From Pelagibacteraceae bacterium AG-333-C14 (GTDB lineage Bacteria > Pseudomonadota > Alphaproteobacteria > Pelagibacterales > AG-422-B15), in assembly GCA_003282485.1 (NCBI GenBank), contig QBZD01000002.1:4769-68768 (forward strand): DNA of 64,000 nucleotides. The letters run 5' to 3'. Numbering within the stretch: position 1 is the first letter of the stretch; each line of letters starts with the position of its first letter. Made by a program: the position numbers and the translations under genes. Below are positions 4,692 through 58,630 of the stretch, piece after piece. The notes under the pieces are model-generated. The model had not been told where the DNA came from, made no database searches, and saw only the letters and a list, made by a program, of their open reading frames with translations.

Positions 4692-5735
4692 ATGATAAGG
4701 ATATTTTTTAATATACTTAAGAACCTTGACCCTGAAGTTGCTCACAAATTAACAATAAATGCACTTAAACTTCCAAATCCATTTATTGAAAGCTGTAATG
4801 ATATCTCTATTTTAAGCAATGATATTAACGGACTCAGGTTTAAGAACCCTATTGGAATGGCTGCAGGATTTGATAAAAATGCTGAAGTTATAAATCCATT
4901 ATTCAATTTAGGATTTGGTTTCACCGAATGTGGGACTGTTACACCAAGGCCTCAATTTGGAAATGCTAAACCAAGAGTATTCCGGCTTGCATCAGATAAA
5001 GCGATTATAAATAGACTGGGATTTAATAATAATGGTATCGAAAAATTTTTGATGAATATGAGTAAATCAAATAAAAATGGAGTCCTTGGGGCAAACATTG
5101 GACCGAACAAAGACACAGAAAATTTTATTGATGATTATATTAAGCTATACACTCAAGTAATTGATTATTCAGATTACGTTACAGTAAATGTCTCTTCGCC
5201 AAACACCAAAAATTTAAGAGAGATACAAGAACACGATACACTAAACGCATTACTTAGCGAGTTGTCTCAATTAAGAGAAAACATGAAGACACAAAAAAAA
5301 ATCATCCTAAAAATTGATCCTGATAGTACGAAACAGCATTACAGCATGATACTTAATTTAGTTCAGAAATATAAAATTGACGGTTTAATAGCTACTAATA
5401 CCACTATTTCTCGTCCTCATGATTTAATGGACGAGTATAAAGATGAAGAGGGAGGCATATCAGGACAGCCACTTAAAGAATTATCGAATAAAGTGTTAAG
5501 CTTTCTTTCAAAAGAAACAAATAGAGAATTGTTGCTTATTGGTGCTGGAGGTATTTCAAACGCAGAGGATGTTTATACTAAAATTAAGTTAGGTGCATCA
5601 TTAGTCCAATTGTATACAGCTCTTACTTTCAATGGACCACAAATGATAAATAAGATTAAAAAAGATTTATCATTACTTTTGCAAAATGATGGGTACAAAA
5701 ATATTGCAGATGCAGTAGGGATTATTCATTCATGA
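4692..5735 (+). CDS. pyrD: dihydroorotate dehydrogenase (quinone), class 2
   Basis: 347 aa with 'GFDKNAE', 'GTVTPRPQFGNAKPRVFRL', 'NRLGFNNNG' and 'NVSSPNT'. Confidence 0.9.
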   Translation: MIRIFFNILKNLDPEVAHKLTINALKLPNPFIESCNDISILSNDINGLRFKNPIGMAAGFDKNAEVINPLFNLGFGFTECGTVTPRPQFGNAKPRVFRLASDKAIINRLGFNNNGIEKFLMNMSKSNKNGVLGANIGPNKDTENFIDDYIKLYTQVIDYSDYVTVNVSSPNTKNLREIQEHDTLNALLSELSQLRENMKTQKKIILKIDPDSTKQHYSMILNLVQKYKIDGLIATNTTISRPHDLMDEYKDEEGGISGQPLKELSNKVLSFLSKETNRELLLIGAGGISNAEDVYTKIKLGASLVQLYTALTFNGPQMINKIKKDLSLLLQNDGYKNIADAVGIIHS

Positions 5736-43364: not shown

Positions 43365-44432
43365 ATGGATCCAAACTTAGAAGCAAAAAAAGACAAAGTT
43401 ATTGATCTCATTAACAATCTAGAAGACAGCAACTTTGCATTGTTGCTCTTAATTCATATTTCTCGGTATCAAAATTTATTTTTGCATACAGAACCTGATT
43501 GGTCAAACAGCCCAAATAATTGGATAACTAAAGACAGACGACTCCAAGATGAGTCTATTGGAGTTCTTTCGTTCATCATTCTTTATTCTCTTACCAATGC
43601 ACATGTAGATGAAAATCTTTTTCCTGAATATAGAAAGCAAATTAAGGCAATGAAGCTTGAAGATTTCTTAGATAATAATTTTTTTATTACTCCATTTACT
43701 AATTTTATTGGAAAAAAAATATCTCTCAAAGTTCTTGAGGCATTTTTTTCAATTCCCCGTGAAAATATAAGACGATATATAAATTCTTTGATAGAGGCTG
43801 GATTTATTAGTAAAGACAAAACGTATGGCTATCTTGTAAACATGGAGGCGTATGTTCAATATATATTTACTGACTCTCTTAGTAAAATTATGAAGTCACT
43901 CATGAGAACATTCGATGATATTATTGCTAACCTTGAGGAAAAGTACCAACTAAAATTAAATTTAAAACCAATCTCATCGATAGATTTAGGAAAGACAAAA
44001 CCAGACGTATGGAATCGAATTAGATTGCCTATGTATCATTTTTGGGTAAGAGTTCTAACACTAGAAGGCAATGATCACCTTTTAAGCCCTAATGATAGAG
44101 TTGTCTTGTCTGCATCGATCTATTTTAGGAAACGTACAGGAATATTAAATTTCGCTAATATTTCTGAGTTATACGAAAATGATTATTTATTGCCAACAAA
44201 TATTTCGTCAATTGCAGAGGCATCTAAAATGCCACGAGAAACTGTGAGGAGGTGTAGTAATAAATTAATAAAGATGGGACATTTTGAAAAAAAAGGACGT
44301 CAATTGTTTAGAACTAATTACGCTCATAAAAAAGATGGAGAAATAGCAACATTTATCAAGAATAAAGCAGTTACAACTCGCGACATGATGAATTTTTATT
44401 TTAGAATCTATGAAGATTTAGTTCAGATTTAA
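43365..44432 (+). CDS. hypothetical protein with two winged-helix-like modules (putative DNA-binding regulator)
   Basis: 355 aa with an internal duplication: 'FSIPRENIRRYINSLIEAGFISKDKTYGY' (aa ~128-156) and 'SKMPRETVRRCSNKLIKMGHFEKKGRQLF' (aa ~288-316). Confidence 0.55.
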   Translation: MDPNLEAKKDKVIDLINNLEDSNFALLLLIHISRYQNLFLHTEPDWSNSPNNWITKDRRLQDESIGVLSFIILYSLTNAHVDENLFPEYRKQIKAMKLEDFLDNNFFITPFTNFIGKKISLKVLEAFFSIPRENIRRYINSLIEAGFISKDKTYGYLVNMEAYVQYIFTDSLSKIMKSLMRTFDDIIANLEEKYQLKLNLKPISSIDLGKTKPDVWNRIRLPMYHFWVRVLTLEGNDHLLSPNDRVVLSASIYFRKRTGILNFANISELYENDYLLPTNISSIAEASKMPRETVRRCSNKLIKMGHFEKKGRQLFRTNYAHKKDGEIATFIKNKAVTTRDMMNFYFRIYEDLVQI

Positions 44433-47167
44433 ATTGAGCACATTAAAATAATTTCTTCATTACACACTAGTTCAGCTTCAACAATTGAGCTGTTTTGAGC
44501 GCTTAATTGTGTATCAAGAGCTTCCAGCATAGACTTTGCTTCATTCATTGGCACCGGACCTACAATTATGGAATAGTCGTTTTTATCTAATTTATCGACA
44601 TTGATATCATATTTGAGAAATCTGCTGTCAAATCCCATGACATCGTAAATATAATTCATAAAACTGAATGCAGAATTGCCACGTGTATAGGATCCAATTT
44701 TTATATAAACAAATTCAGCATCGCTGGTATCAATTGATAATTCAGCTTCTTCAATATCACTTGCTTGGGCACTAAATGCATTCGATACAACTTCTGTAGG
44801 CTCTTCGATGAGTTGAGTGAGATCTTCTAATGCTTGAGTTGCTTCTTCAGCTAATTTATTTTCTAATTCAGCAGCATTGCTAAGTTCTGTAAGTAAATCT
44901 CTTGCAGCAGTAGCTTCTTCTACAAGACTATTCTCATCAACAGTATTTAAAATTTTCTTTTTTGGTAAAACACTAACTAATTCTAATGTTTCTTCAGTAT
45001 TATCAACTATAGCCTCATCATTTGGTAAGAGTGGTGCATCTAGTTGACTCTCCATGTCATCAACTTCTGTAATGGCTGCTTCTTCATTATCAACAGAAGC
45101 ATCATCAAGTATATTTTGAGCTTTTTGAAGAGTGTTATCAACAGAGTCTAATAAATCATTAAGACTATCAGCATCATTAATGACCATCTCATTTGAAACG
45201 ACATAATCATCTAAATCAATACTTGGCTCATCGATAATTTCTGTAATCTCTGGAATTTCGTCATCTGTTGTAATGTTGTTCGCTTCTTTTTTATCCAGAC
45301 CCAATTGGATAAGTTTTTTTCTTGCACCTTCACCTTCTTGGGCAAGAAATTCACCCTCATCCATAAATTGAAGTGTAAAATTGTCCTCAACTGAAACAAG
45401 AGCATTTGCAACTGAAACTTTTAACTTAATTCCTGACACATCACTTGGTGGATTGCCCACAAACGATAAATCAGAAGTTAAAAAAGCAAGCCATCTGGGC
45501 AAAGGAGTTCCATCTTCTTGCGTAGCTTGAAAACGTAATTTACCTGGCCCACTGATATTGAAAGTATTTTCCGAAATTTGAAATTTATTACTCGTTTGCT
45601 GTGTATTGATTGGATCATTTATAATCAGAAGCATGGGATCTTGCTCGCTGATAGGAAGATTTACGGCTGCTTGGTAAACTTCTCCCCATTCGGAAAGATT
45701 GGTTTCAATATTTTTACTTACATCCTCAATCGATAAATTTTGATGATTATCAGGAAGAATATCTTTTCCTATTGATGCATAGATTTGACCGATACTATGC
45801 TGCATTTCAGAAAATGCTAGATCTCGTCTGAGTTCCGCAACGAGTAAACTCGCTTCTTCTCGAATAACTTCAAGTTCACCAAATCTTGAGACTTTTTGGG
45901 CATTTTGAACTTGTTTACTTATCCTTTGTGCAACATCTAAATATCTTTGTGCGGTATCATATTCTTCAATGGCCAAGGCATAATTCATATTTGAGAGGTG
46001 TACTTGAGACAGTACTGTCATGGCTATCGCAAGATGACGTTCTGCAATTAAATCTTTACTTGCTTCTGATGATTTTCTTACGGCGCCTAGAGAAAATACG
46101 TTAAAAAGATTAGCTCCAATTGAAGCTCCGTATTCTGTCGTATCTTGGTTTAATAAATATTCATTATCAGAATATCCATACGTGGCATTGAATTTTATAC
46201 TAGGGATCAAACCTAATATAGCTGCTTTAGTATCCTTACTGGTAATTCTTTTTTGATATCGACTTTCCATGAGTTCAGGTCTTGAAACGAGAGCCATCTC
46301 TTCCATTGTTTCTATGCGCATATTTATATTGGTGAGGTAAGTATCGTCGCTTGATAAACTAAACTTTTGGCCAGGTAGTAATCCCATGAGTATTGCAAGC
46401 TCATTTTTAGAATTTATTAATGCCCTTTGTTGAGTTTGTAGCGTTCTCTGTACGTCAAGTAATTCTTTTTGATAAAGCAACGAGTCCATAGGTGCAGATA
46501 TGAGTAGTTCTTCAATATATTGTGAATCTGCAAGAGCAGTTTCAACTCTATCAAGAAGTGGATTCAATTTTTTTAAGAGATTTTCTGACGCTTGCGCTTT
46601 CCAGTAAGCACGAATGATGTCTCGTGTGATATTTTGAGTTGCCTTTCGCTCAAGTTCTTTTGCAATTAAGTAGCGATCTGCTTGCTGTCCAGCACGTATG
46701 TAAGATAATCCAAAGTCAAGAGCATTCCATGTAAATTCAATGTTTCTAGTTTCCAAACCTTTATCTCTTGAAATTGTATAAGACTGTGTTCCATCTAATG
46801 CCGGAGCATCTCCCATATCATTATCTACGCCAACACTTGTTGATGGTTGCAATTCATTAAACTCAGAGTAACCTGCATTGAGTGCAATATCAGGCAGCAT
46901 ATCAAATCGTTGAAGATCACTTTGTCTTTGAGCTAATGCTGACTCCATAACACTTATTCTTAAGTCACGGTTGTTTTTAATTCCAATAGCAATTGCAGTG
47001 TGCAGGTCTATGTTTTCTAGAGGTGCCTCAACTGCAAGCAAAGATAAATCCTTTTGAACACTTACATTTAATTTTTCTGCGTCGATAACATTTGGTGTTC
47101 GAGCGCAGGCGCTGAGTGCGATGAATAGGAAAAATATAATTATTTTTGTACCAATTATTCTCATCAA
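44429..47167 (-). CDS. TolC-family outer-membrane lipoprotein with a C-terminal extension (cadherin-like Ig domain, acidic linker, SPOR-like domain)
   Basis: 912 aa with lipobox 'FIALSAC' (Cys21). The region aa ~30-480 is coiled-coil/beta-barrel like TolC/OEP. 'PLPRWLAFLTSDLSFVGNPPSDVSGIKLKVSV' is a dystroglycan-type cadherin-like motif. A D/E-rich linker of about 200 aa follows. The C-terminus 'YIKIGSYTRGNSAFSF...YSIIVGPVPMNEAKSMLEAL' is SPOR-like. Confidence 0.8.
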   Translation of the reverse strand: MMRIIGTKIIIFFLFIALSACARTPNVIDAEKLNVSVQKDLSLLAVEAPLENIDLHTAIAIGIKNNRDLRISVMESALAQRQSDLQRFDMLPDIALNAGYSEFNELQPSTSVGVDNDMGDAPALDGTQSYTISRDKGLETRNIEFTWNALDFGLSYIRAGQQADRYLIAKELERKATQNITRDIIRAYWKAQASENLLKKLNPLLDRVETALADSQYIEELLISAPMDSLLYQKELLDVQRTLQTQQRALINSKNELAILMGLLPGQKFSLSSDDTYLTNINMRIETMEEMALVSRPELMESRYQKRITSKDTKAAILGLIPSIKFNATYGYSDNEYLLNQDTTEYGASIGANLFNVFSLGAVRKSSEASKDLIAERHLAIAMTVLSQVHLSNMNYALAIEEYDTAQRYLDVAQRISKQVQNAQKVSRFGELEVIREEASLLVAELRRDLAFSEMQHSIGQIYASIGKDILPDNHQNLSIEDVSKNIETNLSEWGEVYQAAVNLPISEQDPMLLIINDPINTQQTSNKFQISENTFNISGPGKLRFQATQEDGTPLPRWLAFLTSDLSFVGNPPSDVSGIKLKVSVANALVSVEDNFTLQFMDEGEFLAQEGEGARKKLIQLGLDKKEANNITTDDEIPEITEIIDEPSIDLDDYVVSNEMVINDADSLNDLLDSVDNTLQKAQNILDDASVDNEEAAITEVDDMESQLDAPLLPNDEAIVDNTEETLELVSVLPKKKILNTVDENSLVEEATAARDLLTELSNAAELENKLAEEATQALEDLTQLIEEPTEVVSNAFSAQASDIEEAELSIDTSDAEFVYIKIGSYTRGNSAFSFMNYIYDVMGFDSRFLKYDINVDKLDKNDYSIIVGPVPMNEAKSMLEALDTQLSAQNSSIVEAELVCNEEIILMCSI

Positions 47168-47350: not shown

Positions 47351-50300
47351 ATGAGCAATAAACTTATTCAGGCCTTGGAACCCCGTCTTATGCTTGACGG
47401 TGCAGCAGTCGCAACTGCAATTGATGCGGTTGATGATTTAGCTCAGTTTCAAAAATCCGAAAGCGACAAGTCATCTAAAGCAGATCACTTCAAAGTTGAT
47501 AAAGACACAAAGTTACCTTTTGTAAATTTAGATGCATCAACTCAAAATGCAAAATCAAGGCAGATTGTATTTATCGATAGTACGGTTGAAGATATTGAAA
47601 CTCTAATTAACAGTTTTGACAACAATACAGACGTGCATGTCATACAAAGTGATCAAGATGGATTTGTTACTATGCAAAATATTTTATCATCGCAAGAAAA
47701 TATAGATGCGGTTCATGTCATTGGTCACGGTAGTGTAGGACAGATTGCCTTTGGTACAGCTGTATTAAACAGTGACACATTAAATACTTATGAAAACATT
47801 CTCCAAGAGATTGGAAATAGTCTCTCAGAAAATGGAGACATTTTATTTTACGGTTGTAACGTAGCCGCAGATCAAAGTGGTGAGATCTTAATCAAACAAA
47901 TTGCAGATATTACTGATGCAGATGTAGCGGCATCAGATGATGTGACTGGTAAGGGTGGCGACTGGGATTTGGAGAAACATACAGGCATCATCGAGACAAA
48001 AAATATTACAGTTGCAGATTATGATTATGCACTTGATGCATACGGAGTAGATTCAATTAATTCAAGTGTTGTTGCTATCCATGATGCGACAAACTATGAG
48101 GCACGTTGGACAGGTGATAGTACTAACCGAGACGGACAACAGGATCCAAGTTCAGATCGATTTGTTTTATCTCAGGAAAGAGCCAGCGTCACTAGTGGCA
48201 CAGGCACATTAAATTTTGACGTCTCTGCTGGAGCAAGTTCATTCACACCCAGTGCAAGTAATCCAGTCCATGTTTATTTGCTTTTCTCTAATGATGAAAC
48301 AAATAGCAATTCGAGAAGACAGGGTAGCAGAGTTGGTCAAGTAACTTTTGATAATGAAATTCTTGGTATTTTTACAAACCCACTAAATACCATTGCAATG
48401 ACAGGGATTTCAAAATCAGGTGCCACATACCCAACATCGAGTTCAGATAAAATTGGAATGAGGGATTTAGAATATAAGAATGACAATGCTCCAGGACAAA
48501 GTGGAAATGGTGACTGGTTTGCAATATCAAACAGTAACAAGACCATTCAAATTGGTACTAAAAACGGTTTAAAAGGTGACTTTGTTCGTATCATTACCAG
48601 AGCACCAGTTTCAAACAATGACCCTGTTGGTAACAATGATACTGGCGCAGTTAATGAAGATGCAAGTGTCTCAGTAAGTTCAGGTAGTGGCGTCTTGTCA
48701 AATGATACAGATGCTGATGGAGATTCACTCACTGTAAGTGCAATATCAGGAGGATCTCTTGGATCAGCTCTAAATGGCACATATGGACAGCTAACCATGA
48801 ATGCAAATGGTAGCTACACGTATACCGCAAATAGAGATGCTGCAGACCCTCTTGATCCAGGCGATACAGTAACAGATACATTTACATACACCGTATCCGA
48901 TGGAACCGATACAGACACCGCAACGCTCACGATTACTATCACAGGAGTTAACGATCCAATAACAGCCGTGAATGATACAGATGCCGTAAATGAAGATGCA
49001 ACCATCAATCGAAGCACTTCAGACTCTCAAGAATTGGACCATGATGATACCGACCCTGATGCCGATGATGCATCTGGAAGCTTCACCATAACAGCAATTC
49101 GAACAGGCAGAGAAAGTGCAAGTGGAACCAGTGGTACGGTTGGACAAGCGCTTACTGGTACCTATGGTGTGTTAACTGTTGCTGCGGACGGTAGTTATAG
49201 TTATGCAGCGACAACAAGTGGTGCAGATGGCTTAGCTCACGGAGCGACAGCAATTGATTACTTCACCTACACAGTCAGGGATCATTCTAGTAGTCCCAAT
49301 GATACAGATACAGCTGAACTTGCAATTACAGTTACAGGAGTTGGACCAGTGGCATCGAATGATACGGGAGCAGTTAATGAAAATGCAACGCTATCTAAAA
49401 ACGCAGGTGCAGGCGTCACTGCAAATGATACAAGCGGTGATACAGAGAGTCTCGATGTAACTGCTATTTCGTCTAATGGTACTGGAACTTCTGGCACAGT
49501 AGGGCAAGCCTTAACTGGGACTTATGGTGTTTTAACATTGAATGCTGATGGAAGTTATTCATATGTTGCAAATACTGCAGCTGCTGAAGCGTTAGATGCT
49601 GGAGACAGTGTAACAGATGTCTTTACTTATACTGTGGCAGATGATGATGATGCAAGTACAGACACGGGAACATTAACAATCACCATTACAGGAGTAGATG
49701 ATGATCCAGTTGGCGTTAACGATACTGGTGCTGTTAACGAGGATGCAACACTTGAAGTTAACCAGGTAAGTAGCGGTGTTTTAGCAAACGATACCGATGC
49801 TGATGCTGATGCAAGTTTAACAGTTTCAGCAATTTCTGGTGGAACTGTAGGACAAGCAAAAAATGGCACATATGGCGCACTTACCTTAGCTTCTAATGGT
49901 ACTTATACTTATGTGGCCAATCAAAGTGGGGCTGACGGCCTTGCTGCTGGTGCCACTGCAACAGACACCTTCACATATACAGTGAGTGATGGAGCAGGAA
50001 CCACTGATACAGCTACTTTAACAATAACTGTTACAGGAATTGGACCACAAGCTGTAGATGATACAGGCGGCGTCAATGAAGATGCAACTCTCACCGTTAA
50101 TGAAGCATCTGGAGTGATCAGTAATGATGATGATAACAGTAGCTTTGATAGTGAAAGTTTAGCAATAACAGGCATTAGAACTGGTACTGAGTCTGGAAGC
50201 GGTTCGGCTGGAACAGTTGGAGCTGCATTAACAGGCACATACGGTCAATTGACAATCGCTGCTGATGGAAGTTATGAGTATGTTGCTAACCAAGCTGCGG

Positions 50301-53300
50301 CCGATGCTCTTGACCCAGGCGATACTGTTACGGATACATTTACTTACACCGTAAAAGATGATGATAATAAAAATGCTGATACTGGTGAGCTTGTTATTAC
50401 GGTAACGGGTATTAATGATGACATCACTGCAGTCAATGATACAGATGCACTAAATGCTGGTGCAACAATTACTCGAAGTACCTCAGATACACAAGAGTTA
50501 GACCATGATGATACAGACCCAGATGCGGATGATGTTTCAGGATCATTTACAATTACAGCAATTCGAACTGGGGCAAGTGAAGGCGCTGGAACCGCTAAAA
50601 CTATCGGACAAGCTTTTACAACGACTTACGGTACTATGACAGTCAATGCAGATGGATCATATACCTATGCTGCTGATCAAAACGGCTCAACAAGTTTGAG
50701 TAATGGAGCAACTGCAACAGATAGTTTCAACTATACTGTACAAGACCACAATAGTGGAGATACAGATACTGCAACTCTCGTGATTACCATTACTGGATCA
50801 AACAATAGAAACCCTGTCGCATCAAATGATACTGGAGTCATTATTGAGGATGGCACACTTACTGTTGCAGATGGTGGTTCTGCAGTTACAGGCTCTGATA
50901 GCAATAACAACAATGAAAGTGGTGACACTACAGGTGATGTCTTAGTCGGGGATACTGATCCTGATGGTGATACCTTAACAGTTACTGCTATTTCAGGAGG
51001 AACAGTTGGAGATGCCGTTACAGGTACATTTGGTACACTGACAATTCATTCAAATGGACGTTACACATATGAGGCTGATCAAGCCGCAGCTGATGCTCTT
51101 GATCCAGGTGATACTGGAACTGATACTTTTACATATACGGTAGGGGATGGAAATGATGGATTTGATACTGCAACACTAACCTTTACAATAATTGGTGCTG
51201 ACGATGATCCAGTTGGAGTGAATGACACAGGGTACATTAACGAAGATGCGACTTTAAGTGTTTCAGATGGCGGTTCTGCAGTAACTGGTTCTGATAGCAA
51301 TAATAACAATGAGAGCGGCGATACAACAGGAGATGTTCTTGCGAATGACACGGATGCGGATGGGGATGCAAGTCTTGTAGTTTCTGCGATTTCTGGTGGA
51401 ACATTAGGCCAAGGAGTAGCGGGCACTTATGGTACTCTGACTTTAAATGCAAATGGTAGTTATTCATATGTAGCTAATCAAAGCGGCGCAGATGGACTTG
51501 CAGCAAATGCAACTGCAACTGATGTGTTCACTTATACCGTAAGTGATGGTACTGGGACAACAGACACAGCAACGCTTACAATTACAGTAAAAGGGGTTGG
51601 TCCAGTTGCAAGCAATGATACGGGCAGTGTGAATGAAGATGCAACGTTATCTGTAAATGCAGGTTCAGGAGTTACGTCAAATGATACTGGCGGTGATACT
51701 GAAAGTCTAGCGGTCACAGCAATTAGAACAGGCACTGAATCAGGCAGTGGATCTTCGGGTACTGTTGGTCAATCATTAACAGGTACTTATGGTACACTTA
51801 CCATCAATGCTGATGGATCATATACATACGTTGCTGATCAAGCAGCTGCCGATGCTTTAGATCCAGGGGACTCTGCTACAGATACTTTTACTTATACTGT
51901 GGCAGATGATGACGATAAAAATACAGATACAGGTGAGATTGTCATAACTGTTAATGGAACAAACGATGATATTGTTGCAGTTAATGACACTGACGCTGTG
52001 AATGAAGATGCGACAATCTCCCGATCAACCAGTGATACACAGGAGCTTGATCATGATGATACAGATGCTGACGGTGATGATGTTCCAGGATCATTCACAA
52101 TTACAGCTATTAGAACAGGATCAGAGAGTGGATCTGGAACGTCCGGAACTATTGGGCAAGCTTTAACAGGCACATACGGCACACTTACGGTTAATGCTGA
52201 TGGATCATACACATATGTGGCTGATCAAAATGCAGCTGACAGTATTGTAACTGGACAGACAGCAACGGATACATTTACTTACACGGTTAGAGATCACAAC
52301 AGTGGATCCACAGATACAGCAGAGCTTATCTTTACAGTAACAGGTATTAATGATGAAAACCCTGTGGCTGTTGATGATACAGACACTGTACCGAAAGGTG
52401 AAACAATTACGAGAGCAGCCGATACAACTTTTGCACTTAACGCAGACGACACTGATGCAGATGGGGAGTCGTTAACAATTTCTGCAATTAGAGTAGGACA
52501 AACTGAAGGCGGTGGAGATTCAGGTACACTCGGTTCAGGTCTTGTAGGCACATATGGTACTCTTACTCTTAATGCTGATGGAAGCTATAGTTACGTTGCT
52601 GATCAGACTGCAGCAGATAGGCTTAAACGAGGAGAGAGTGCAATTGAATATTTTAATTACACTGTAACAGATGGAACAAATGAGGACATTGGTGTGCTTG
52701 CAATTACTGTTACTGGTAAAAGTGATCCACCCGTACCGGTTGATGATACTCTTGCAATTGATGCTGGTGCAACCGGAATAAAAGATGCAACTAATGGTGT
52801 TTTAAATAATGATACGGACCCCGACGGTGACAGTTTAACAGTAGACACTATAAGAACTGGTGAAGAGTCAGGTACTGGCACATCCGGTACAATTGGATCA
52901 CCTCTAACAGGAACGTATGGTGACTTAACTATAAATTCTGATGGTGGCTATGAATACAAGGCTAATAATGCGAAGGCATTAAATCCAGGTCAAACAGCAA
53001 CAGAATACTTTACGTATACCGCAACAGATGGAGAAACGCCTGTAGAAGCTCAGATAGCCATTACTGTGACTGGTATCAATGATCCACCTGAAGTAATTAA
53101 TCCAATTGAAGTGCCTGTATTAGTACAAGGGCAAAAGATTACAATCAGACACAAACAAACCTTTGATGATCCAGATACTGGTATTTATGATATTACTGAA
53201 TACAAAATTATTGATCCTGAGACAGAAGCAGAAACCAGTCTACCAGAAGGTCTTTCATTAAGGGAAAATAAACTTACAGGAAGACTTACTACACCAGGTA

Positions 53301-54454
53301 CATACACTATTACTATTAGAGCAATCGATGGTGCAGGACTCTATGCAGATCATACATTCACCATCACTGTTATTCCAAAGGTCATTATTGAGCCAGAGGT
53401 CGAACAGGCAGAAGGAGATTCATTTTCACTTGAGCCAATTGAACCTATAAAAGTAAAGCCTGCTAAAATGCAGGAAGTCATTAATGAGGTGAATATTATT
53501 GATGATGAAGGCTTTACTCTTGATACAATTTCAATTGCAGATACCGCATCCCTATCTAAGCCGCTTAAGTTTAATGGCGGCCTAAGATTGATGGATGCTG
53601 TTGCGAGCGAGGTATCGGGTGATGATAATACAGATTTAGCGATTGGTGTTAAATTAAATGACGATAATCAAAAGAATGTTGAACTATATTCAGGACAATT
53701 ATCCGACGGACAATCATTGCCTGAATGGATTAAAGTTGATCCTGAAACAGGTGAGACAACTGCAGAAATGCCAGATGGGATTGATCAGGTAGAAGTTCAA
53801 CTTGTTGCGTTAGATAAAGATGGAAATACTCGTGATATAAACATCGTTTTAGACAAAGCTAAAATCAAGAATGACCGAGACTTCACTCGTGGTACTGTTG
53901 GTCAAACTAGAGTTGTTGTTGATAATGACGCAAACGTAAACTTGATCAGAGAGAACAACAATGCATCTAATCAAACAGCAAATAATAACTTAAACGCTCA
54001 AACAGATTTTGAAGGCACAATGAAGTTAAGCAGTCTTCAAATGGATGCAGGCCAATACACAGTTGATGTAATTGATGACAATCAATCGAATGTAAAAATG
54101 TATAAAGCTGAGCTAAAAGGTGGTGTTGAACTTCCAGATTGGATTACGATTGATCCTCAAACAGGAAAAATAGCAGCCGACCCATCTAAAGGTCGAACTG
54201 GATCAGCTGCTCCCTCATTCTTAACAGATAGTCTTCAGGTTCTTGAACTAAAGATTATTGCTGAAGATGAAGACGGAAAAGAAAGAGTTATTGAAGTTGA
54301 GATTGATCTTAATGAAATAACGGGTGCTGAGACAGATGATGAAAATTCAGCATCAGATGACGAAATTTCTTTTATTCCACTTGATGAGCAATTAAAGCTA
54401 CACGCTAAGAGAGCGGATAGCTATGGCGAAAAGATTATATCTCTAGTAAGCTAA
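47351..54454 (+). CDS. giant surface/adhesin-like repeat protein (LEPR-XLL N-terminus, DUF4347, 12 VCBS/cadherin-like modules, 3 dystroglycan-type cadherin-like domains)
   Basis: 2367-aa uninterrupted ORF. N-terminus 'ALEPRLMLDGAAVA', DUF4347-like aa 71-208 ('VFIDSTVED...VHVIGHGSVGQIAFG...ILFYGCNVA...GGDWDLE'), 12 modules of about 105-135 aa ('NDTGAVNEDATL...NDTDADGD.LTV.AI.GG..G....GTYG.LT.NA.GSY.Y.A...AAD.L..G...TD.FTYTV.D......T.TITVTG.ND'), then 'LPEGLSL', 'LPEWIKVDPETG' and 'LPDWITIDPQTG' domains. No GGxGxD RTX nonapeptides. Confidence 0.9.
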   Translation: MSNKLIQALEPRLMLDGAAVATAIDAVDDLAQFQKSESDKSSKADHFKVDKDTKLPFVNLDASTQNAKSRQIVFIDSTVEDIETLINSFDNNTDVHVIQSDQDGFVTMQNILSSQENIDAVHVIGHGSVGQIAFGTAVLNSDTLNTYENILQEIGNSLSENGDILFYGCNVAADQSGEILIKQIADITDADVAASDDVTGKGGDWDLEKHTGIIETKNITVADYDYALDAYGVDSINSSVVAIHDATNYEARWTGDSTNRDGQQDPSSDRFVLSQERASVTSGTGTLNFDVSAGASSFTPSASNPVHVYLLFSNDETNSNSRRQGSRVGQVTFDNEILGIFTNPLNTIAMTGISKSGATYPTSSSDKIGMRDLEYKNDNAPGQSGNGDWFAISNSNKTIQIGTKNGLKGDFVRIITRAPVSNNDPVGNNDTGAVNEDASVSVSSGSGVLSNDTDADGDSLTVSAISGGSLGSALNGTYGQLTMNANGSYTYTANRDAADPLDPGDTVTDTFTYTVSDGTDTDTATLTITITGVNDPITAVNDTDAVNEDATINRSTSDSQELDHDDTDPDADDASGSFTITAIRTGRESASGTSGTVGQALTGTYGVLTVAADGSYSYAATTSGADGLAHGATAIDYFTYTVRDHSSSPNDTDTAELAITVTGVGPVASNDTGAVNENATLSKNAGAGVTANDTSGDTESLDVTAISSNGTGTSGTVGQALTGTYGVLTLNADGSYSYVANTAAAEALDAGDSVTDVFTYTVADDDDASTDTGTLTITITGVDDDPVGVNDTGAVNEDATLEVNQVSSGVLANDTDADADASLTVSAISGGTVGQAKNGTYGALTLASNGTYTYVANQSGADGLAAGATATDTFTYTVSDGAGTTDTATLTITVTGIGPQAVDDTGGVNEDATLTVNEASGVISNDDDNSSFDSESLAITGIRTGTESGSGSAGTVGAALTGTYGQLTIAADGSYEYVANQAAADALDPGDTVTDTFTYTVKDDDNKNADTGELVITVTGINDDITAVNDTDALNAGATITRSTSDTQELDHDDTDPDADDVSGSFTITAIRTGASEGAGTAKTIGQAFTTTYGTMTVNADGSYTYAADQNGSTSLSNGATATDSFNYTVQDHNSGDTDTATLVITITGSNNRNPVASNDTGVIIEDGTLTVADGGSAVTGSDSNNNNESGDTTGDVLVGDTDPDGDTLTVTAISGGTVGDAVTGTFGTLTIHSNGRYTYEADQAAADALDPGDTGTDTFTYTVGDGNDGFDTATLTFTIIGADDDPVGVNDTGYINEDATLSVSDGGSAVTGSDSNNNNESGDTTGDVLANDTDADGDASLVVSAISGGTLGQGVAGTYGTLTLNANGSYSYVANQSGADGLAANATATDVFTYTVSDGTGTTDTATLTITVKGVGPVASNDTGSVNEDATLSVNAGSGVTSNDTGGDTESLAVTAIRTGTESGSGSSGTVGQSLTGTYGTLTINADGSYTYVADQAAADALDPGDSATDTFTYTVADDDDKNTDTGEIVITVNGTNDDIVAVNDTDAVNEDATISRSTSDTQELDHDDTDADGDDVPGSFTITAIRTGSESGSGTSGTIGQALTGTYGTLTVNADGSYTYVADQNAADSIVTGQTATDTFTYTVRDHNSGSTDTAELIFTVTGINDENPVAVDDTDTVPKGETITRAADTTFALNADDTDADGESLTISAIRVGQTEGGGDSGTLGSGLVGTYGTLTLNADGSYSYVADQTAADRLKRGESAIEYFNYTVTDGTNEDIGVLAITVTGKSDPPVPVDDTLAIDAGATGIKDATNGVLNNDTDPDGDSLTVDTIRTGEESGTGTSGTIGSPLTGTYGDLTINSDGGYEYKANNAKALNPGQTATEYFTYTATDGETPVEAQIAITVTGINDPPEVINPIEVPVLVQGQKITIRHKQTFDDPDTGIYDITEYKIIDPETEAETSLPEGLSLRENKLTGRLTTPGTYTITIRAIDGAGLYADHTFTITVIPKVIIEPEVEQAEGDSFSLEPIEPIKVKPAKMQEVINEVNIIDDEGFTLDTISIADTASLSKPLKFNGGLRLMDAVASEVSGDDNTDLAIGVKLNDDNQKNVELYSGQLSDGQSLPEWIKVDPETGETTAEMPDGIDQVEVQLVALDKDGNTRDINIVLDKAKIKNDRDFTRGTVGQTRVVVDNDANVNLIRENNNASNQTANNNLNAQTDFEGTMKLSSLQMDAGQYTVDVIDDNQSNVKMYKAELKGGVELPDWITIDPQTGKIAADPSKGRTGSAAPSFLTDSLQVLELKIIAEDEDGKERVIEVEIDLNEITGAETDDENSASDDEISFIPLDEQLKLHAKRADSYGEKIISLVS
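47375..47395 (+). other. LEPRxLL motif (LEPRLML) at residues 9-15 of the giant protein
   Basis: Direct translation: ttg gaa ccc cgt ctt atg ctt, followed by DGAAVA. It matches the N-terminal motif I recall as the 'LEPR-XLL domain' of very large repetitive proteins, which is frequently followed by DUF4347. Confidence 0.7.
48610..53089 (+). repeat. in-frame tandem array of 12 VCBS/cadherin-like coding modules with a 4-module super-repeat
   Basis: Module boundaries are marked by recurring '...TITVTG(I/V)(N/G/D)D/P' then '(V/I).(A/V)(N/D)DT'. The subtype starting 'I(T/V)AVNDTDA(V/L)N...RSTSD.QELDHDDTD' recurs at 48959, 50423 and 51971, a spacing of 1464 and 1548 nt. Confidence 0.9.
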
Positions 54455-54464
54455 GAAAAACCAT

Positions 54465-55184
54465 ATGAACAACATTGTAACATTTGCAGTTATTGCTTGC
54501 TGTATCTTTTTTCCATTTAATTTACTAGCTGAAGAATATTCAACACGTGTTTTGGTAACTGCAACTGAAGAGGCAACAATATCAAGTGAACTTGCCTCAA
54601 AAGTTGAGTCTATTCCATTTGCAGAAGGTACAAATTTTAAAAAATCAGATGTATTAATTAAGTTGGACTGTTCTTTTTTTGAAGCCCAAAAAGATGTAGT
54701 ACAAGCGGAGTTAGAAAGTGCCATCGTAACCTTGAAGAGCAATCAAGAACTTGCAACGATGAGGTCCATTGGTGAGTATGAAGTTCAATTGTCACAAATA
54801 GCAGTAGATAGGGCTAAGTCAGAGTTGAAAATTGCTCAGCTTAATACAGATCGTTGCATTATACGTGCTCCCTATGACGGAACAATGTCCAAAGTGTTTG
54901 TAAATGAATATGAAAGCATTGAAAGGCAACAACCGATGATTCAAATTATTGGCTCTGGAATATTGGAAGCAAAACTTATGATTTCAAGTAAATGGTTGTC
55001 ATGGTTGTCTGAGGGCCATCCATTGACCATTTTAATTGATGAAAATGGTTTAAAATATAGTGCTACAGTGAATACCTTGGGGGCGAATATTGATCCAGTA
55101 AGTCAAACTATTGACGCTACTGCAAAATTTGATGAAAATTATGAAACATTACTTCCTGGAATGAGTGGGACGGCAACATTTTGA
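54465..55184 (+). CDS. small periplasmic membrane-fusion (HlyD/RND-adaptor-like) protein
   Basis: 239 aa. Signal peptide 'MNNIVTFAVIACCIFFPFNLLAEE', a lipoyl/barrel-sandwich pattern ('ATISSELASKVESIPFAEGTNFKKSDVLIKLD ... IIRAPYDGTMSKVFV') and a short coiled-coil hairpin. It starts 11 nt after the giant gene's stop. Confidence 0.75.
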   Translation: MNNIVTFAVIACCIFFPFNLLAEEYSTRVLVTATEEATISSELASKVESIPFAEGTNFKKSDVLIKLDCSFFEAQKDVVQAELESAIVTLKSNQELATMRSIGEYEVQLSQIAVDRAKSELKIAQLNTDRCIIRAPYDGTMSKVFVNEYESIERQQPMIQIIGSGILEAKLMISSKWLSWLSEGHPLTILIDENGLKYSATVNTLGANIDPVSQTIDATAKFDENYETLLPGMSGTATF

Positions 55185-56524
55185 ATGATAATTCCTCTAT
55201 AAAAATTGCGCGACTAATAACACTTGAGAAAAAGTTTCGTAATGCAGAAACTGAAACTGAGCTTACTTTTATTTGTGCCAATGAACTGCGAAGCATAGTT
55301 GATTATAATTTTTTATTCCTTCTCAACAGATCAAGTATAAATCGATTAAAAGTACATACTATTTCTGACCTATCAATTATCGATAGAACAGCACCAACGG
55401 TTACTTTTGTTGAAACATTAATAAATAAAAAAGATCTAGTCAGCTTTGAGGATATTTCGGAATTTAATCTCAACGATACTTCAATAAAAGACTTAAATCT
55501 TATTACTCCTGATAATTTTCCTAAACAATTAATATTTATTCCTCTACGTTCGCGGATTGAAAAAAATATTGGGTATCTAGTCATGGTTAGATCAGAAGTA
55601 ATCAGCAACTCTGAAAAAGATCTTTTACTTCATATTTCAGAAACTTTTAGTCATGCACTCAACTCTTTTAGGTCAAAAAATACAATCATTTCAAATATCA
55701 ACCGTTTATTTACTGGATGGATTAAATGGGCAGTGATTGCTTCTGTAACGGCAGTAATGTTTTTTCCAATTAGTATGACAGCTTTAGCGCCCGTTGAAGT
55801 AGTTGCAAAAGATCCAACCGTTGTGACTTCACCTGTAAATGGCGTGGTAAAAGAAGTTTTAATTAAGACCAATGAAAACGTAAAGCCAGGGACAGAACTT
55901 GTCAGATTGGATGATTTAAATTTTAAAAATCAGTATGAAATTGCGCTTCAAGAGCTTGAAGTGGCAGAAGCAGAGCTTTTACGCATCAAGCAGTCATCAT
56001 TTACAAATCCAGATGACAAAGCTCGTTTAGTTGAGCTATCAACAGAAGTAGGATTGAGAAAAAAAGAAGCAGCATATGCTGAAGAACAATTGAAATACTC
56101 AATCATCTATGCAGACAGAGAAGGTATTGCTGTTGTTGAAGACTTTACTGATTGGCAAGGGAGGCCAGTTAACATTGGAGAAAAAATATTAACCATAGCT
56201 GATCCTGAACAAATTGAATTTCAAATCTTCTTACCCACTAAAGACTCTCTTTTGATTAAAAAAGAAGCAAGAGTAAAAGTTTTTTTAGATAGTGACCCTC
56301 TCAATTCTTTAGACGGTAAGGTATTGCGTACTTCATATAAACCCGCACTTACATCTGAGAATATTTTAGCTTATAAGATCGTTGCAAATTATCATGACAG
56401 TCAAGGTGAGGTTCCAAGGATTGGTTTACGTGGTACCGCTAAGATTTATGGCGAAAAGACAAGTATTTTTTATTACATATTCCGTGTTCCTATAAATCTC
56501 ACGAGACAGTTTTTAGGATTTTAA
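55181..56524 (+). CDS. membrane-fusion (HlyD-like) protein with a cytoplasmic GAF-like N-domain
   Basis: 447 aa. A soluble N-domain of about 170 aa is followed by one TM ('WIKWAVIASVTAVMFFPISM'), then 'VVTSPVNGVVKEVLIKTNENVKPGTELVRLDD', a coiled coil and 'IIYADREGIAVVEDF'. 4-nt overlap with the upstream gene. Confidence 0.75.
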   Translation: MNDNSSIKIARLITLEKKFRNAETETELTFICANELRSIVDYNFLFLLNRSSINRLKVHTISDLSIIDRTAPTVTFVETLINKKDLVSFEDISEFNLNDTSIKDLNLITPDNFPKQLIFIPLRSRIEKNIGYLVMVRSEVISNSEKDLLLHISETFSHALNSFRSKNTIISNINRLFTGWIKWAVIASVTAVMFFPISMTALAPVEVVAKDPTVVTSPVNGVVKEVLIKTNENVKPGTELVRLDDLNFKNQYEIALQELEVAEAELLRIKQSSFTNPDDKARLVELSTEVGLRKKEAAYAEEQLKYSIIYADREGIAVVEDFTDWQGRPVNIGEKILTIADPEQIEFQIFLPTKDSLLIKKEARVKVFLDSDPLNSLDGKVLRTSYKPALTSENILAYKIVANYHDSQGEVPRIGLRGTAKIYGEKTSIFYYIFRVPINLTRQFLGF

Positions 56525-58630
56525 ATGATCGTTCCATATCTAAGACAAGATTTAAAATTGAGCGAGGGTCCCAAAAAAGAGGATGGCTCTTCATCATGGC
56601 TTCTATATGACTCTTTAAGAAATAAATATTTTTCGATAAATAAAAATGCTTTTGATCTTTTAAATAATTGGTCAAGTGGATCTCAATTAGAAGATTTTAT
56701 AAAAAAAATTAATGAAACTAAATTATTAGTAACTAAAGAAGAAATAAGTGAGTTCATAAATTTTCTTGATCAAAATAATTTAACGATCAAAAAAACAAGT
56801 GAAGAAATTAAATCTTTAGTAGTTCAAAAAAACAAAACCAATAAACATTGGTTGCTCAAACTTATTCACAATTATCTATTTTTCAAAATACCGTTAGTAA
56901 GACCTGGTACTTGGCTTCAAAGAAGTTTACCCATTGCCTTATTCTTGAGCTCATTAACAATCAGACGTATTATTTATGGGCTAGGTTTAATCGGAATATT
57001 TTTGACAATAACTAATTATGAGAATTTCCTTTCAACCTTTTCATATTTCTACAACATTAATGGTCTGATCTTATTTGGAATTACAATTGTTTTTGTAAAA
57101 GCATTACATGAGTTGGGTCATGCATATGTAGCTACATACTATAAGTGTAAAGTTTCATCAATTGGCTTAGCCATGTTGGTTTTCTTTCCATTCTTGTATA
57201 CGGATACATCCGATGCCTGGAAACTCACTGATCACAGAAAGCGTTTACTAATAAATTTTGCAGGCATGTTAACTGAACTGCACCTAGCCTTAATTGCTAC
57301 ATTTGCATGGGCCGTATTTCCTGAGGGCATCATGAAAAGTGCAGCATTTTTCATTGCTACATCAAGCTGGATCTCATCTTTATTGATCAATATAAGTCCT
57401 TTTATGAGGTTTGATGGCTATTATGTGCTATCAGACTTTCTTAAAGCTGAAAATTTGCAACCACGCTCATTTGCTTTAGGTCGATGGCAGATAAGAGAGT
57501 GGCTTTTTGGTTTTAAATTTCAACCACCTGAACAGTTGATAGCTAACAGAAGGTGGACTTTTATAATTTACGCATGGGCTACGTGGATTTATCGTTTCTT
57601 CATTTTTATTGGTATTGCATTATTGGTTTACTATTTAACATTTAAAATATTAGGAATTATTTTATTTGTAATAGAAATTGTATGGTTCATTTTATTGCCG
57701 ATTGTCAGAGAAGTCATACAATGGTGGAAGCTTAGAAAATCTATGAAATTCAATAGATCTTCTATGAGGTCAATGATCTTATTTGCAGTTTTTATGTTTG
57801 CTATGCTTGTTCCATGGCGCACATCCCTTAGTTTGCCAGCTGTTATTGAAGAAGGTGTTGTTCTTGATATCTTTGCCTCTGAAGATTCAAAGATAAGAAA
57901 GGTTTTTGTTTCGCATGATCAATACGTAGCTGAAGGAGACTTGCTTGTTATTATGGCCAACCCATTGATCTCTAATAAAGTCGAAAAAGCAATTGACCGC
58001 GTGAAAATGATTCAGCAAAAACTTGATCGTAGAGTGGGATCAGAACTTGATCTTAGCAATCTACTAATACTTGAGAACGAATTACAAAAAGAGATTGAAA
58101 TTCTGAATTCATTGAAAGAAGAAAACAAAGCTTTATCAATTTATGCACCATCAGATGGCATAATAAAAGATTTGATAAGTCTAACCGCTAATCAATGGGT
58201 AAATAAAAAAGATAAGCTATTTTCAATTGTTCAGTCAGAAGAAGTGCAAGTGAAAGCTTTTGTTAGCGAGACGGATCTTGATAAAATAAAAAAAGTTTCA
58301 AGTGGTTACTTTCATGCAAAAAATAATGAATTTGCGAAAGTCAAAGTCGAATTAGTATCATCAAATGTAACTTCAACCGAAGAGTTGCCGTATTTGGCTC
58401 TGACCTCAACTTATGGAGGCACAATTGCATCAAGAGAAATACTTGGAAAGAAACAGGTTCAGAGACCTGAAAATGCTGTTTATCAACTAAATTTCACTTC
58501 CTTAGAAAACCTAAAAGATTTGCAATGGCAGACAGCTGGATCTGTTAAAATAGATTCTGAGAATTATAATATTTTTCAAAATATATTTAATGCTACTACC
58601 TCAATACTCATCCAGGAAAGTGGGTTCTAG
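56525..58630 (+). CDS. fusion protein: PqqD/RRE-like N-domain, polytopic M50 (site-2-protease family) zinc metalloprotease and C-terminal HlyD-like adaptor domain
   Basis: 701 aa. 'KALHELGHAYVA' gives HExxH in a TM helix and 'FMRFDGYYVLSD' is a candidate third zinc-ligand motif, with about 8 TM. C-terminal 'DIFASEDSKIRKVFVSHDQYVAEGDLLVIMANP', a coiled coil and 'IYAPSDGIIKDLI'. The N-terminal 'WLLYDSLRNKYFSINKNAFDLLNNWSSGSQLEDFIKKI...EFINFLDQNNL' is PqqD-like. Its ATG directly abuts the upstream stop. Confidence 0.8.
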   Translation: MIVPYLRQDLKLSEGPKKEDGSSSWLLYDSLRNKYFSINKNAFDLLNNWSSGSQLEDFIKKINETKLLVTKEEISEFINFLDQNNLTIKKTSEEIKSLVVQKNKTNKHWLLKLIHNYLFFKIPLVRPGTWLQRSLPIALFLSSLTIRRIIYGLGLIGIFLTITNYENFLSTFSYFYNINGLILFGITIVFVKALHELGHAYVATYYKCKVSSIGLAMLVFFPFLYTDTSDAWKLTDHRKRLLINFAGMLTELHLALIATFAWAVFPEGIMKSAAFFIATSSWISSLLINISPFMRFDGYYVLSDFLKAENLQPRSFALGRWQIREWLFGFKFQPPEQLIANRRWTFIIYAWATWIYRFFIFIGIALLVYYLTFKILGIILFVIEIVWFILLPIVREVIQWWKLRKSMKFNRSSMRSMILFAVFMFAMLVPWRTSLSLPAVIEEGVVLDIFASEDSKIRKVFVSHDQYVAEGDLLVIMANPLISNKVEKAIDRVKMIQQKLDRRVGSELDLSNLLILENELQKEIEILNSLKEENKALSIYAPSDGIIKDLISLTANQWVNKKDKLFSIVQSEEVQVKAFVSETDLDKIKKVSSGYFHAKNNEFAKVKVELVSSNVTSTEELPYLALTSTYGGTIASREILGKKQVQRPENAVYQLNFTSLENLKDLQWQTAGSVKIDSENYNIFQNIFNATTSILIQESGF
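57107..57121 (+). other. HExxH zinc-binding motif (HELGH) of the M50 protease domain
   Basis: cat gag ttg ggt cat, in frame with the 56525 ORF (residues 195-199), inside a hydrophobic segment. Confidence 0.8.

Follow-up and report, generated by a model that had tools for sequence, protein, structure and literature searches.

A three-part fusion of a peptide-recognition fold, a site-2 protease and a periplasmic adaptor, encoded beside giant LEPR-XLL proteins in a Pelagibacteraceae genome and in other phyla

The 64,000-nucleotide stretch of DNA analysed here (the window; positions 4,769 to 68,768 of contig QBZD01000002.1, Pelagibacteraceae bacterium AG-333-C14) encodes a 701-aa protein in which a domain with the fold of PqqD and of the RiPP recognition elements (RREs; RiPP, ribosomally synthesised and post-translationally modified peptide) is joined to an M50 site-2 protease (S2P) with seven transmembrane (TM) helices and to a periplasmic membrane fusion protein (MFP) domain of the HlyD type. 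We favour, with modest confidence, the reading that this fusion forms the core, in the inner membrane, of a dedicated machine that spans the envelope, processes the giant LEPR-XLL protein encoded next to it and probably exports it. Across phyla, the gene cassette to which the fusion belongs is found together with giant repeat proteins that carry an LEPR-XLL motif at the N-terminus, and the anatomy of the fusion, together with its gene context, suggests that recognition, cleavage and docking are coupled in one polypeptide. The parts of the two proteins are located in the window as follows.

56525..58630, + strand: three-part fusion protein, ATG start, 701 aa
56525..56794, + strand: cytoplasmic RRE/PqqD-fold domain, fusion residues 1-90, from an AlphaFold2 model and Foldseek
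56906..57808, + strand: M50/S2P membrane domain, fusion residues 128-428, seven TM helices and a reentrant beta-hairpin at 213-226
57107..57121, + strand: HELGH, residues 195-199 (H195, E196, H199), zinc-binding and catalytic, at the cytoplasmic end of TM2
57389..57418, + strand: NISPFMRFDG (N289..D297-G298), second S2P motif with the third zinc ligand, assigned by conservation
57809..58627, + strand: periplasmic MFP/HlyD adaptor domain, fusion residues 429-701
47351..54454, + strand: giant putative substrate, 2,367 aa, with LEPR-XLL motif, DUF4347 and 12 cadherin-like/VCBS repeats
47372..47425, + strand: LEPR-XLL leader motif A8-LEPRLMLDGAAVATAID-25, proposed RRE ligand and M50 substrate, from a sequence logo and the cassette association

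A first-pass annotation of the window had described a PqqD/RRE-like, M50 and HlyD fusion, and this description was confirmed with its coordinates exact and with all of its quoted strings in place, including an N-terminal string that occupies residues 22-86, HELGH, and RFDGYY at residues 295-300. In Pfam, Peptidase_M50 (PF02163) matched residues 186-358 at 37.2 bits against a curated cut-off of 27.2, and the adaptor part matched HlyD_3 (residues 539-621, 45.7 bits, cut-off 22.2) and HlyD_D23 (residues 449-591, 30.9 bits, cut-off 30). A HMMER search of 1.84 billion cluster representatives (at 50% identity) with the fusion gave 10,667 hits at E <= 1e-3, of which 2,647 reached E <= 1e-30, and the best 150 clusters were mostly about 700 aa long and aligned from end to end, approximately one in ten being shorter or partly matched. 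Because of this end-to-end homology, and because the active-site residues are invariant, the fusion gene is not a chance open reading frame (ORF). The three-part protein is therefore not the rarity it had seemed at first, but a widespread family with generic annotations, such as "site-2 protease family protein", "HlyD family efflux transporter periplasmic adaptor subunit" and "putative peptide zinc metalloprotease", the last being the name given to several homologues by JGI. Its hosts include SAR11, Pseudomonas, Halomonas, Nitrospira, Azospirillum, Scalindua, Desulfobacterota, Sulfurimonas and Zetaproteobacteria, and the window itself has 97% protein identity to the Pelagibacteraceae (SAR11) single-cell genome AG-430-P03.

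The assignment of the N-terminal domain depended on structure prediction, since sequence methods alone do not settle it for the clade to which the window fusion belongs (the window clade). Single-sequence searches of the Protein Data Bank (PDB) with this domain or with the whole fusion found nothing meaningful, a PDB profile search with the domain was empty, and the NCBIfam model PqqD_rel_WgkC matched residues 23-87 only marginally (E 1e-3, 19 bits with the cut-off at 110). For residues 1-132, an AlphaFold2 model based on 35 homologues had a pLDDT of about 88-91 across residues 1-90 and showed the order beta-beta-beta-alpha-alpha-alpha (strands 11-14, 25-29 and 34-38; helices 40-47, 55-64 and 71-83), that is, the three antiparallel strands followed by three helices in a winged-helix fold that characterise an RRE. 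When this model was compared with the PDB by Foldseek, the eight top matches were all RREs, among them TbiB1 with leader (5v1u/5v1v), the sactisynthase CteB (5why/5wgg) and a lasso B1 protein with leader (6jx3), with probabilities of 0.89-1.00; normalised to the target, the TM-score of the stand-alone lasso B1 proteins was 0.58-0.66, and that of the CteB chains, which have 418-440 aa, was 0.14-0.15. The predicted structure thus identifies the fold as that of an RRE, as had been proposed from the sequence. The assignment is further supported by the profile of the daptide proteases, which covers the N-domain, and by a sister clade of three-part fusions (22-25% identity to the window clade), members of which match Pfam PqqD at 28.9 and 24.1 bits with a cut-off of 23.4; a sister-clade fusion is called "PqqD family peptide modification chaperone" by the PGAP annotation pipeline. 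The extreme N-terminus of the fusion (56525-56570, residues 1-15; LPxLRxDLxL) is highly conserved, with R7 invariant, and in the model it adds short strands to the RRE. The composition of these residues is loosely LEPR-like, and they could be a pseudo-substrate.

The active site of the M50 domain is intact and faces the cytoplasmic side. H195, E196, H199, N289, D297 and G298 do not vary among 55 diverse members of the window clade or within a set of 64 sequences, so that the HExxH motif in one TM helix and the NxxPxxxxDG motif in a later one are both in place. A full-length AlphaFold2 model from those 64 sequences (mean pLDDT 85) placed TM helices at residues 144-163, 178-205, 237-264, 269-296, 340-371, 374-402 and 411-428, and the beta-hairpin at 213-226 occupies the place of the membrane-reentrant loop of site-2 proteases. 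Lys and Arg are absent from the short loops on the predicted periplasmic side, whereas each cytoplasmic loop contains 3-5; with seven TM helices and the positive-inside rule, the fusion is therefore predicted to be N-in/C-out. This orientation puts the RRE on the cytoplasmic side of the membrane and the adaptor on the periplasmic side, which is compatible with the proposed combination of functions. The adaptor domain consists of an alpha-hairpin (480-504 and 513-535), a beta-barrel, a lipoyl-like part and a conserved C-terminal helix running to ...ESGF, and Foldseek with the full model retrieved MacA (9qgy_G and 3fpp) at E 1.6e-11, and also EmrA, MexA and AcrA. Together with the Pfam matches, the C-out orientation and the adjoining gene for a TolC-like protein, this identifies the C-terminal part as an MFP. 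In the model, helix 683-699 precedes the C-terminal tail, and conserved tails are found on both TM-anchored MFPs of the cassette (...LIRESGF on the fusion, 58598-58627, and ...RQxLG[FWL] on a 447-aa protein, 56486-56521).

The giant protein of the window contains 12 copies of Cadherin_4 (8e-147) as well as Big_9 in Pfam; neither a Sec-type hydrophobic signal or TM segment nor any GGxGxD RTX repeat was found in it. Two further parts of this protein are located as follows.

47564..48007, + strand: DUF4347 domain, giant residues 72-219 (PF14252, 6.4e-49)
54371..54394, + strand: C-terminal motif FIPLDEQL, giant residues 2341-2348, possible second signal

At their N-termini, such giants have a short basic stretch and after it A-L-E-P-R-x-[LM]-[FL]-D-[GA]-A-x-x-A-T, then an acidic Ala/Gln-rich linker and then DUF4347. 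In a logo of 87 unique N-termini the conservation was L95 E99 P74 R100 x [LM] F72 D93 G70 A90 ... T70. The motif ALEPRLMLDGAAVATA is plainly present in the window giant, whose LEPR-bearing N-terminal peptide reads NKLIQALEPRLMLDGAAVATAID, and it matches this logo; the NCBIfam model LEPR-8K (LEPR-XLL model NF012209) gave 16.5 bits on the same protein, with a cut-off of 17. The giant on an Escherichia coli plasmid begins ...FALESRQLFDGAA, and a sister-clade giant is named "LEPR-XLL domain-containing protein" by PGAP.

The strongest reason for assigning the LEPR-XLL motif as the ligand of the RRE is the specificity of its association with the cassette. In a reverse test, 80 metagenome loci were fetched through the DUF4347 domain, in which giants without the motif start directly at DUF4347, and cassette genes were found near 22 of the 31 informative loci with an LEPR-XLL giant but near none of the 14 without it (Fisher p = 6.8e-6). 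Therefore, the cassette follows the leader and not the DUF4347 domain. As for this domain itself, an alignment of 16 sequences showed that C169 is invariant and that H126 and G127 are nearly so, each after a hydrophobic strand, an order of His-Gly and Cys that we take to recall the clan-CD cysteine proteases. Chain G of PDB entry 9qpe is a DUF4347 protein, and PA0256, a stand-alone DUF4347 protein, has been proposed to be an Hcp-dependent effector of type VI secretion (PMC8262886). The G+C content is 40-43% within the giant gene (window positions 48001-54000) and 31-36% across most of the window, which is probably an effect of the Gly/Ala/Asp/Thr-rich repeats and not evidence of transfer.

The association is also seen in the order of genes around the fusion. 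Three other genes complete the cassette in the window, which runs from the TolC-like gene, divergent from the giant gene, through the giant and the two separate MFPs to the fusion.

44429..47167, - strand: TolC-like outer-membrane factor, 912 aa (Pfam OEP, 9.6e-34), divergent from the giant gene
54465..55184, + strand: small MFP, 239 aa (NCBIfam RND_mfp, 105.7 bits, cut-off 94.9; Pfam HlyD_3 and HlyD_D23)
55181..56524, + strand: MFP with a GAF-like domain, 447 aa (Pfam HlyD_3, 8.7e-14), TM segment at about 181-205 and periplasmic MFP part

Across 80 genome loci, in which flanking ORFs of at least 120 aa were clustered, there were only three conserved flanking families, namely MFPs (77 loci), the giant protein (57) and TolC (45). 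Where at least 6 kb was available on each side, as in 43 loci, a giant ORF was adjacent in 40, so that the neighbours are giants and not the small RiPP-like precursor genes that the first-pass annotation had named as speaking against its reading; an LEPR-type N-terminus was visible in 29 of these 40, and the other 11 giants ran off the fetched DNA. The MFP with the GAF-like domain preceded the fusion in 71 of the 73 loci having at least 1.5 kb upstream, the small MFP was present in 63/80, and the TolC-like gene belonged to the cassette in 45-48/80. The same order was found in classical SAR11, where the giant genes have 6,339 and 9,101 codons, and RefSeq annotation independently gave the same five genes in this order on plasmids of Azospirillum brasilense and E. 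coli. In the window the fusion gene lies in one operon with the two separate MFPs, and spacing is tight, with 10 nt between the giant and the small MFP, an overlap of 4 nt between the two MFPs, and 0 nt between the second MFP and the fusion. Promoter and terminator scans of the window were no richer than those of shuffled sequence, and the window has no tRNA genes.

The proteins encoded by these neighbours have features of their own. The TolC-like protein has a lipoprotein-type N-terminus (lipobox LSAC) and, at its C-terminal side after the OEP repeats, a He_PIG Ig-like domain (residues 516-600, 1.3e-5 in Pfam); its NodT and TolC matches in NCBIfam are weak. At 912 aa it is unusually long, its homologues in other phyla having mostly about 500-650 aa. 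The small MFP has a signal peptide or lipobox (VIAC). The cytoplasmic domain of the 447-aa MFP (about residues 1-170, 55181-55690) is conserved and GAF-like: GAF and GAF_2 of Pfam match 4 and 3 of 22 homologues, respectively, and GAF_3 matches a sister-clade homologue (L168:7083-8945) at 2e-12. This domain suggests control by a small ligand. The system was found on 65 plasmids, and 24 of the 5,426 complete E. coli genomes have it. For example, the E. coli plasmid pABWA45_1 (L165, 118682-138427), which is of IncF type and has counterparts on Citrobacter plasmids, carries the whole five-gene system with a giant gene of about 4,450 codons, and the plasmid-borne system is flanked by IS1 and IS5 elements. 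In Pseudomonas, 2-3 extra ORFs lie between the fusion and giant genes (L065:12127-14790, L078:14143-14988, L048:14956-15564); their clusters span 6-7 loci and, judging from the N-terminal sequences, they may be an acetyltransferase, a phage-tail-collar-like protein and a sulfotransferase.

We propose that, as RREs do with RiPP leaders, the RRE binds the LEPR-XLL leader (ALEPRxLFDGAAxAT) while the giant is nascent or unfolded, and that the M50 domain would then remove this leader, as the homologous RRE-S2P protein MpaP does for daptide leaders. The three MFPs may assemble under a TolC-like trimer, through which the cadherin-like/VCBS polypeptide would reach the cell surface. The likely motor of N-to-C threading is a SecA-type ATPase, which is not encoded in the cassette. 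This suggestion comes from the sister clade, in which a SecA paralogue of about 650 aa is encoded directly downstream of the fusion gene in 8 of 10 loci (L166:9890-11875, L168:12023-14047, L169:11033-12991, L174:11616-13577 and four more), whereas none of 94 window-clade loci has it. Besides SecA_DEAD (1e-96), the paralogue contains the second nucleotide-binding domain and the domain for preprotein cross-linking, with no match to the SecA wing-and-scaffold domain in its shortened sequence, and it is annotated variously as "DEAD/DEAH box helicase", "prepilin peptidase" and SecA. Because the sister clade keeps such a paralogue in its operon, a SecA-type ATPase is the best candidate for the motor, and in the window clade this would be the housekeeping SecA; by extrapolation from these relatives, a motor of this type would suit a signal at the N-terminus and threading from N to C better than a type I mechanism would. 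The sister-clade hosts are Rhodobacterales and Rhizobiaceae, and a small DUF3467 gene is often found upstream of their MFPs. Taken further, the system may represent a distinct secretion route and not a variant of type I secretion, with LEPR-XLL read by an RRE, a domain not known so far outside the natural-product pathways of small peptides, N-first threading of the SecA type, a conduit made of the RRE-S2P-MFP fusion, two further MFPs and TolC, and the M50 domain as its own leader peptidase; this fuller proposal is put forward tentatively, as less likely than not but with a real chance of being right.

Comparison with characterised systems shows which part of this is new. The first-pass annotation knew of no characterised example of the combination, and this stood in part: a two-part RRE-S2P fusion has been characterised in daptide biosynthesis, where MpaP carries out an RRE-dependent removal of the N-terminal leader, so that only the third, MFP part and the giant substrate are new here. 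The likeness to MpaP/DapP (NF041824) is extensive, as both have an N-terminal RRE followed by M50, and fusion residues 23-390 align to positions 17-363 of the 379 in the profile at E 7.7e-38; the daptide_HExxH profile matched 55/55 family members, the best at 1.4e-53. However, the window fusion reached 130.6 bits against the equivalog cut-off of 300, it has three extra TM helices and the 270-aa periplasmic MFP domain, and it has no daptide genes (short precursors, aminotransferase, methyltransferase) among its conserved neighbours. Furthermore, its host is Gram-negative with TolC in the cassette, and its neighbour is a protein of 2,000-13,000 aa instead of a peptide of about 40 aa. YydH/LiaK (NF058609) is likewise an M50 protein that trims a ribosomal peptide precursor, and its profile was matched by 47/55 family members, but the window fusion itself lay above E 0.01, and YydH works with an ABC (ATP-binding cassette) exporter and a radical-SAM enzyme, neither of which is present at the window locus. 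In fold (alpha-hairpin, lipoyl, beta-barrel), the C-terminal 270 aa agree with MacA, EmrA and AcrA, with Foldseek E-values of 1e-11 to 1e-8, although those adaptors are free-standing and work with an ABC, MFS or RND pump, whereas here the adaptor is joined to a protease and no pump is nearby.

With respect to mode of action, the closest parallels are the peptidase-containing ABC transporters (PCATs) and the Lap system. In PCATs, one inner-membrane protein reads an N-terminal leader of the double-glycine type, cuts it and passes on the cargo, in Gram-negative bacteria via an MFP and TolC. The fusion would likewise unite leader recognition, cutting and hand-over of the cargo in one inner-membrane protein, but it has an M50 instead of a C39 cysteine protease, recognition by an RRE, no ABC domains, and the MFP fused to it. 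In the Lap system, the giant repeat adhesin LapA is handled by LapBCE, LapG and LapD, with an MFP, a TolC-like channel and N-terminal proteolysis. The two systems share a giant surface protein (cadherin-like/VCBS here), a dedicated MFP, a TolC-like channel and proteolysis near the N-terminus. They differ in that the window system is without an ABC transporter or RTX repeats and has three MFP paralogues, in that its protease is a membrane M50 with a cytoplasmic reader instead of a periplasmic cysteine protease of the LapG type, and in that its N-terminal element is LEPR-XLL and not a retention module. Nor is the cassette a classical type I system (ABC-MFP-outer-membrane factor), as it has no dedicated HlyB-type ABC transporter. 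In the literature searched, no description of the fusion, of its cassette or of a function for LEPR-XLL was found; "M50" strings in reviews of tripartite systems turned out to be reference DOIs or residue numbers.

The resemblance to the Lap system raises a different explanation, in which the giant is exported C-terminus first by an ABC transporter encoded elsewhere, the RRE holds LEPR-XLL as an anchor or plug, and the M50 domain cuts to shed the adhesin, as in LapG/LapA. We regard this as unlikely but as deserving serious attention, because 18 of 33 complete LEPR-XLL giants share the motif [LIVFMT]x[EDQ]QL within their last 70 aa, where type I signals lie, compared with 0 of 10 DUF4347 giants without the leader and a background of 0.14% per 70-aa window. 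This motif, also seen in L070, L073, L078, L126, L130 and L155, could act as a further signal or as an anchor. It is consistent with such a retention mechanism that the periplasmic parts are ordinary MFPs of the type I and efflux types with TolC, and that the GAF domain on the second MFP recalls the ligand-controlled release of the Lap system. On the other hand, the transporter that it calls for was not seen near the cassette. ORFs with Walker A and LSGGQ occurred in only 10 of the 80 genome loci, all of them small, variable in position and not conserved, and the 64-kb window has no HlyB-type or fused transmembrane-ABC protein, its one ABC ATPase (362 aa) lying 20 kb off; a nearby dedicated ABC exporter was rejected on these grounds. 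The only ATPase tied to the system is the SecA paralogue of the sister clade, which implies preprotein-type handling of the N-terminus.

Two other functions would separate the fusion from the giant altogether. Since RiPP leader peptidases are the closest characterised relatives of the RRE-M50 half, the fusion might trim and export a small modified peptide from an unannotated gene, with the adjacency of the giant gene incidental; this is the least credible of the explanations. The gaps within the operon leave no room for a hidden precursor gene, and the 184-nt upstream spacer holds only TTG-initiated ORFs of 25 and 31 codons, so that such a gene was rejected. There are also no modifying enzymes among the conserved neighbours, and the association with the giant gene is strong, as is the contrast specific to LEPR-XLL. 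It could be argued instead that the fusion has no part in export and that the target of the M50 domain is a regulator in the membrane, for example an anti-sigma factor, with the N-domain a generic winged helix and the MFP anchoring the protease to an efflux pump, since the classic M50 enzymes RseP and SpoIVFB act in signalling and the fold of the N-domain is a variant of the winged helix-turn-helix. This appears highly improbable, because no sigma or anti-sigma genes are conserved in the 80 loci, the best structural matches are leader-bound RREs and not DNA-binding domains, and the relatives in sequence are leader peptidases.

Several observations weigh against the reading that we favour, in which the fusion reads, cuts and passes on the giant. 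The Foldseek E-values of the RRE matches are modest (0.03-0.2), and Pfam PqqD (PF05402) matched 0 of the 55 diverse window-clade members at E <= 0.1. No energiser is encoded in the cassette of the window clade or in the 64-kb window, and the clue to SecA stems from relatives at the low identity given above. At least three loci with an LEPR-XLL giant are flanked on both sides without a cassette (L123, L148, L162). The hydrophobicity of the LEPR segment is only moderate, whereas site-2 proteases usually cut membrane-embedded helices. Finally, because LEPR-XLL giants also share the C-terminal motif, the signal for export is not necessarily the motif at the N-terminus.

The hypothesis is directly testable by standard genetics, because the system is carried on IncF-type plasmids of E. 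coli and in culturable Pseudomonas. If the fusion is indeed the core of such a machine, RREs would gain a role beyond peptide natural products, as leader receptors for giant secreted proteins, and a function would be assigned to the LEPR-XLL motif, by which NCBI names some of the longest bacterial proteins. This would concern the streamlined SAR11 as well as many Pseudomonas, Nitrospira, Azospirillum and rhizobial strains, and it would explain how proteins of 2,000 to more than 10,000 aa are displayed on the cell surface without a dedicated ABC exporter.

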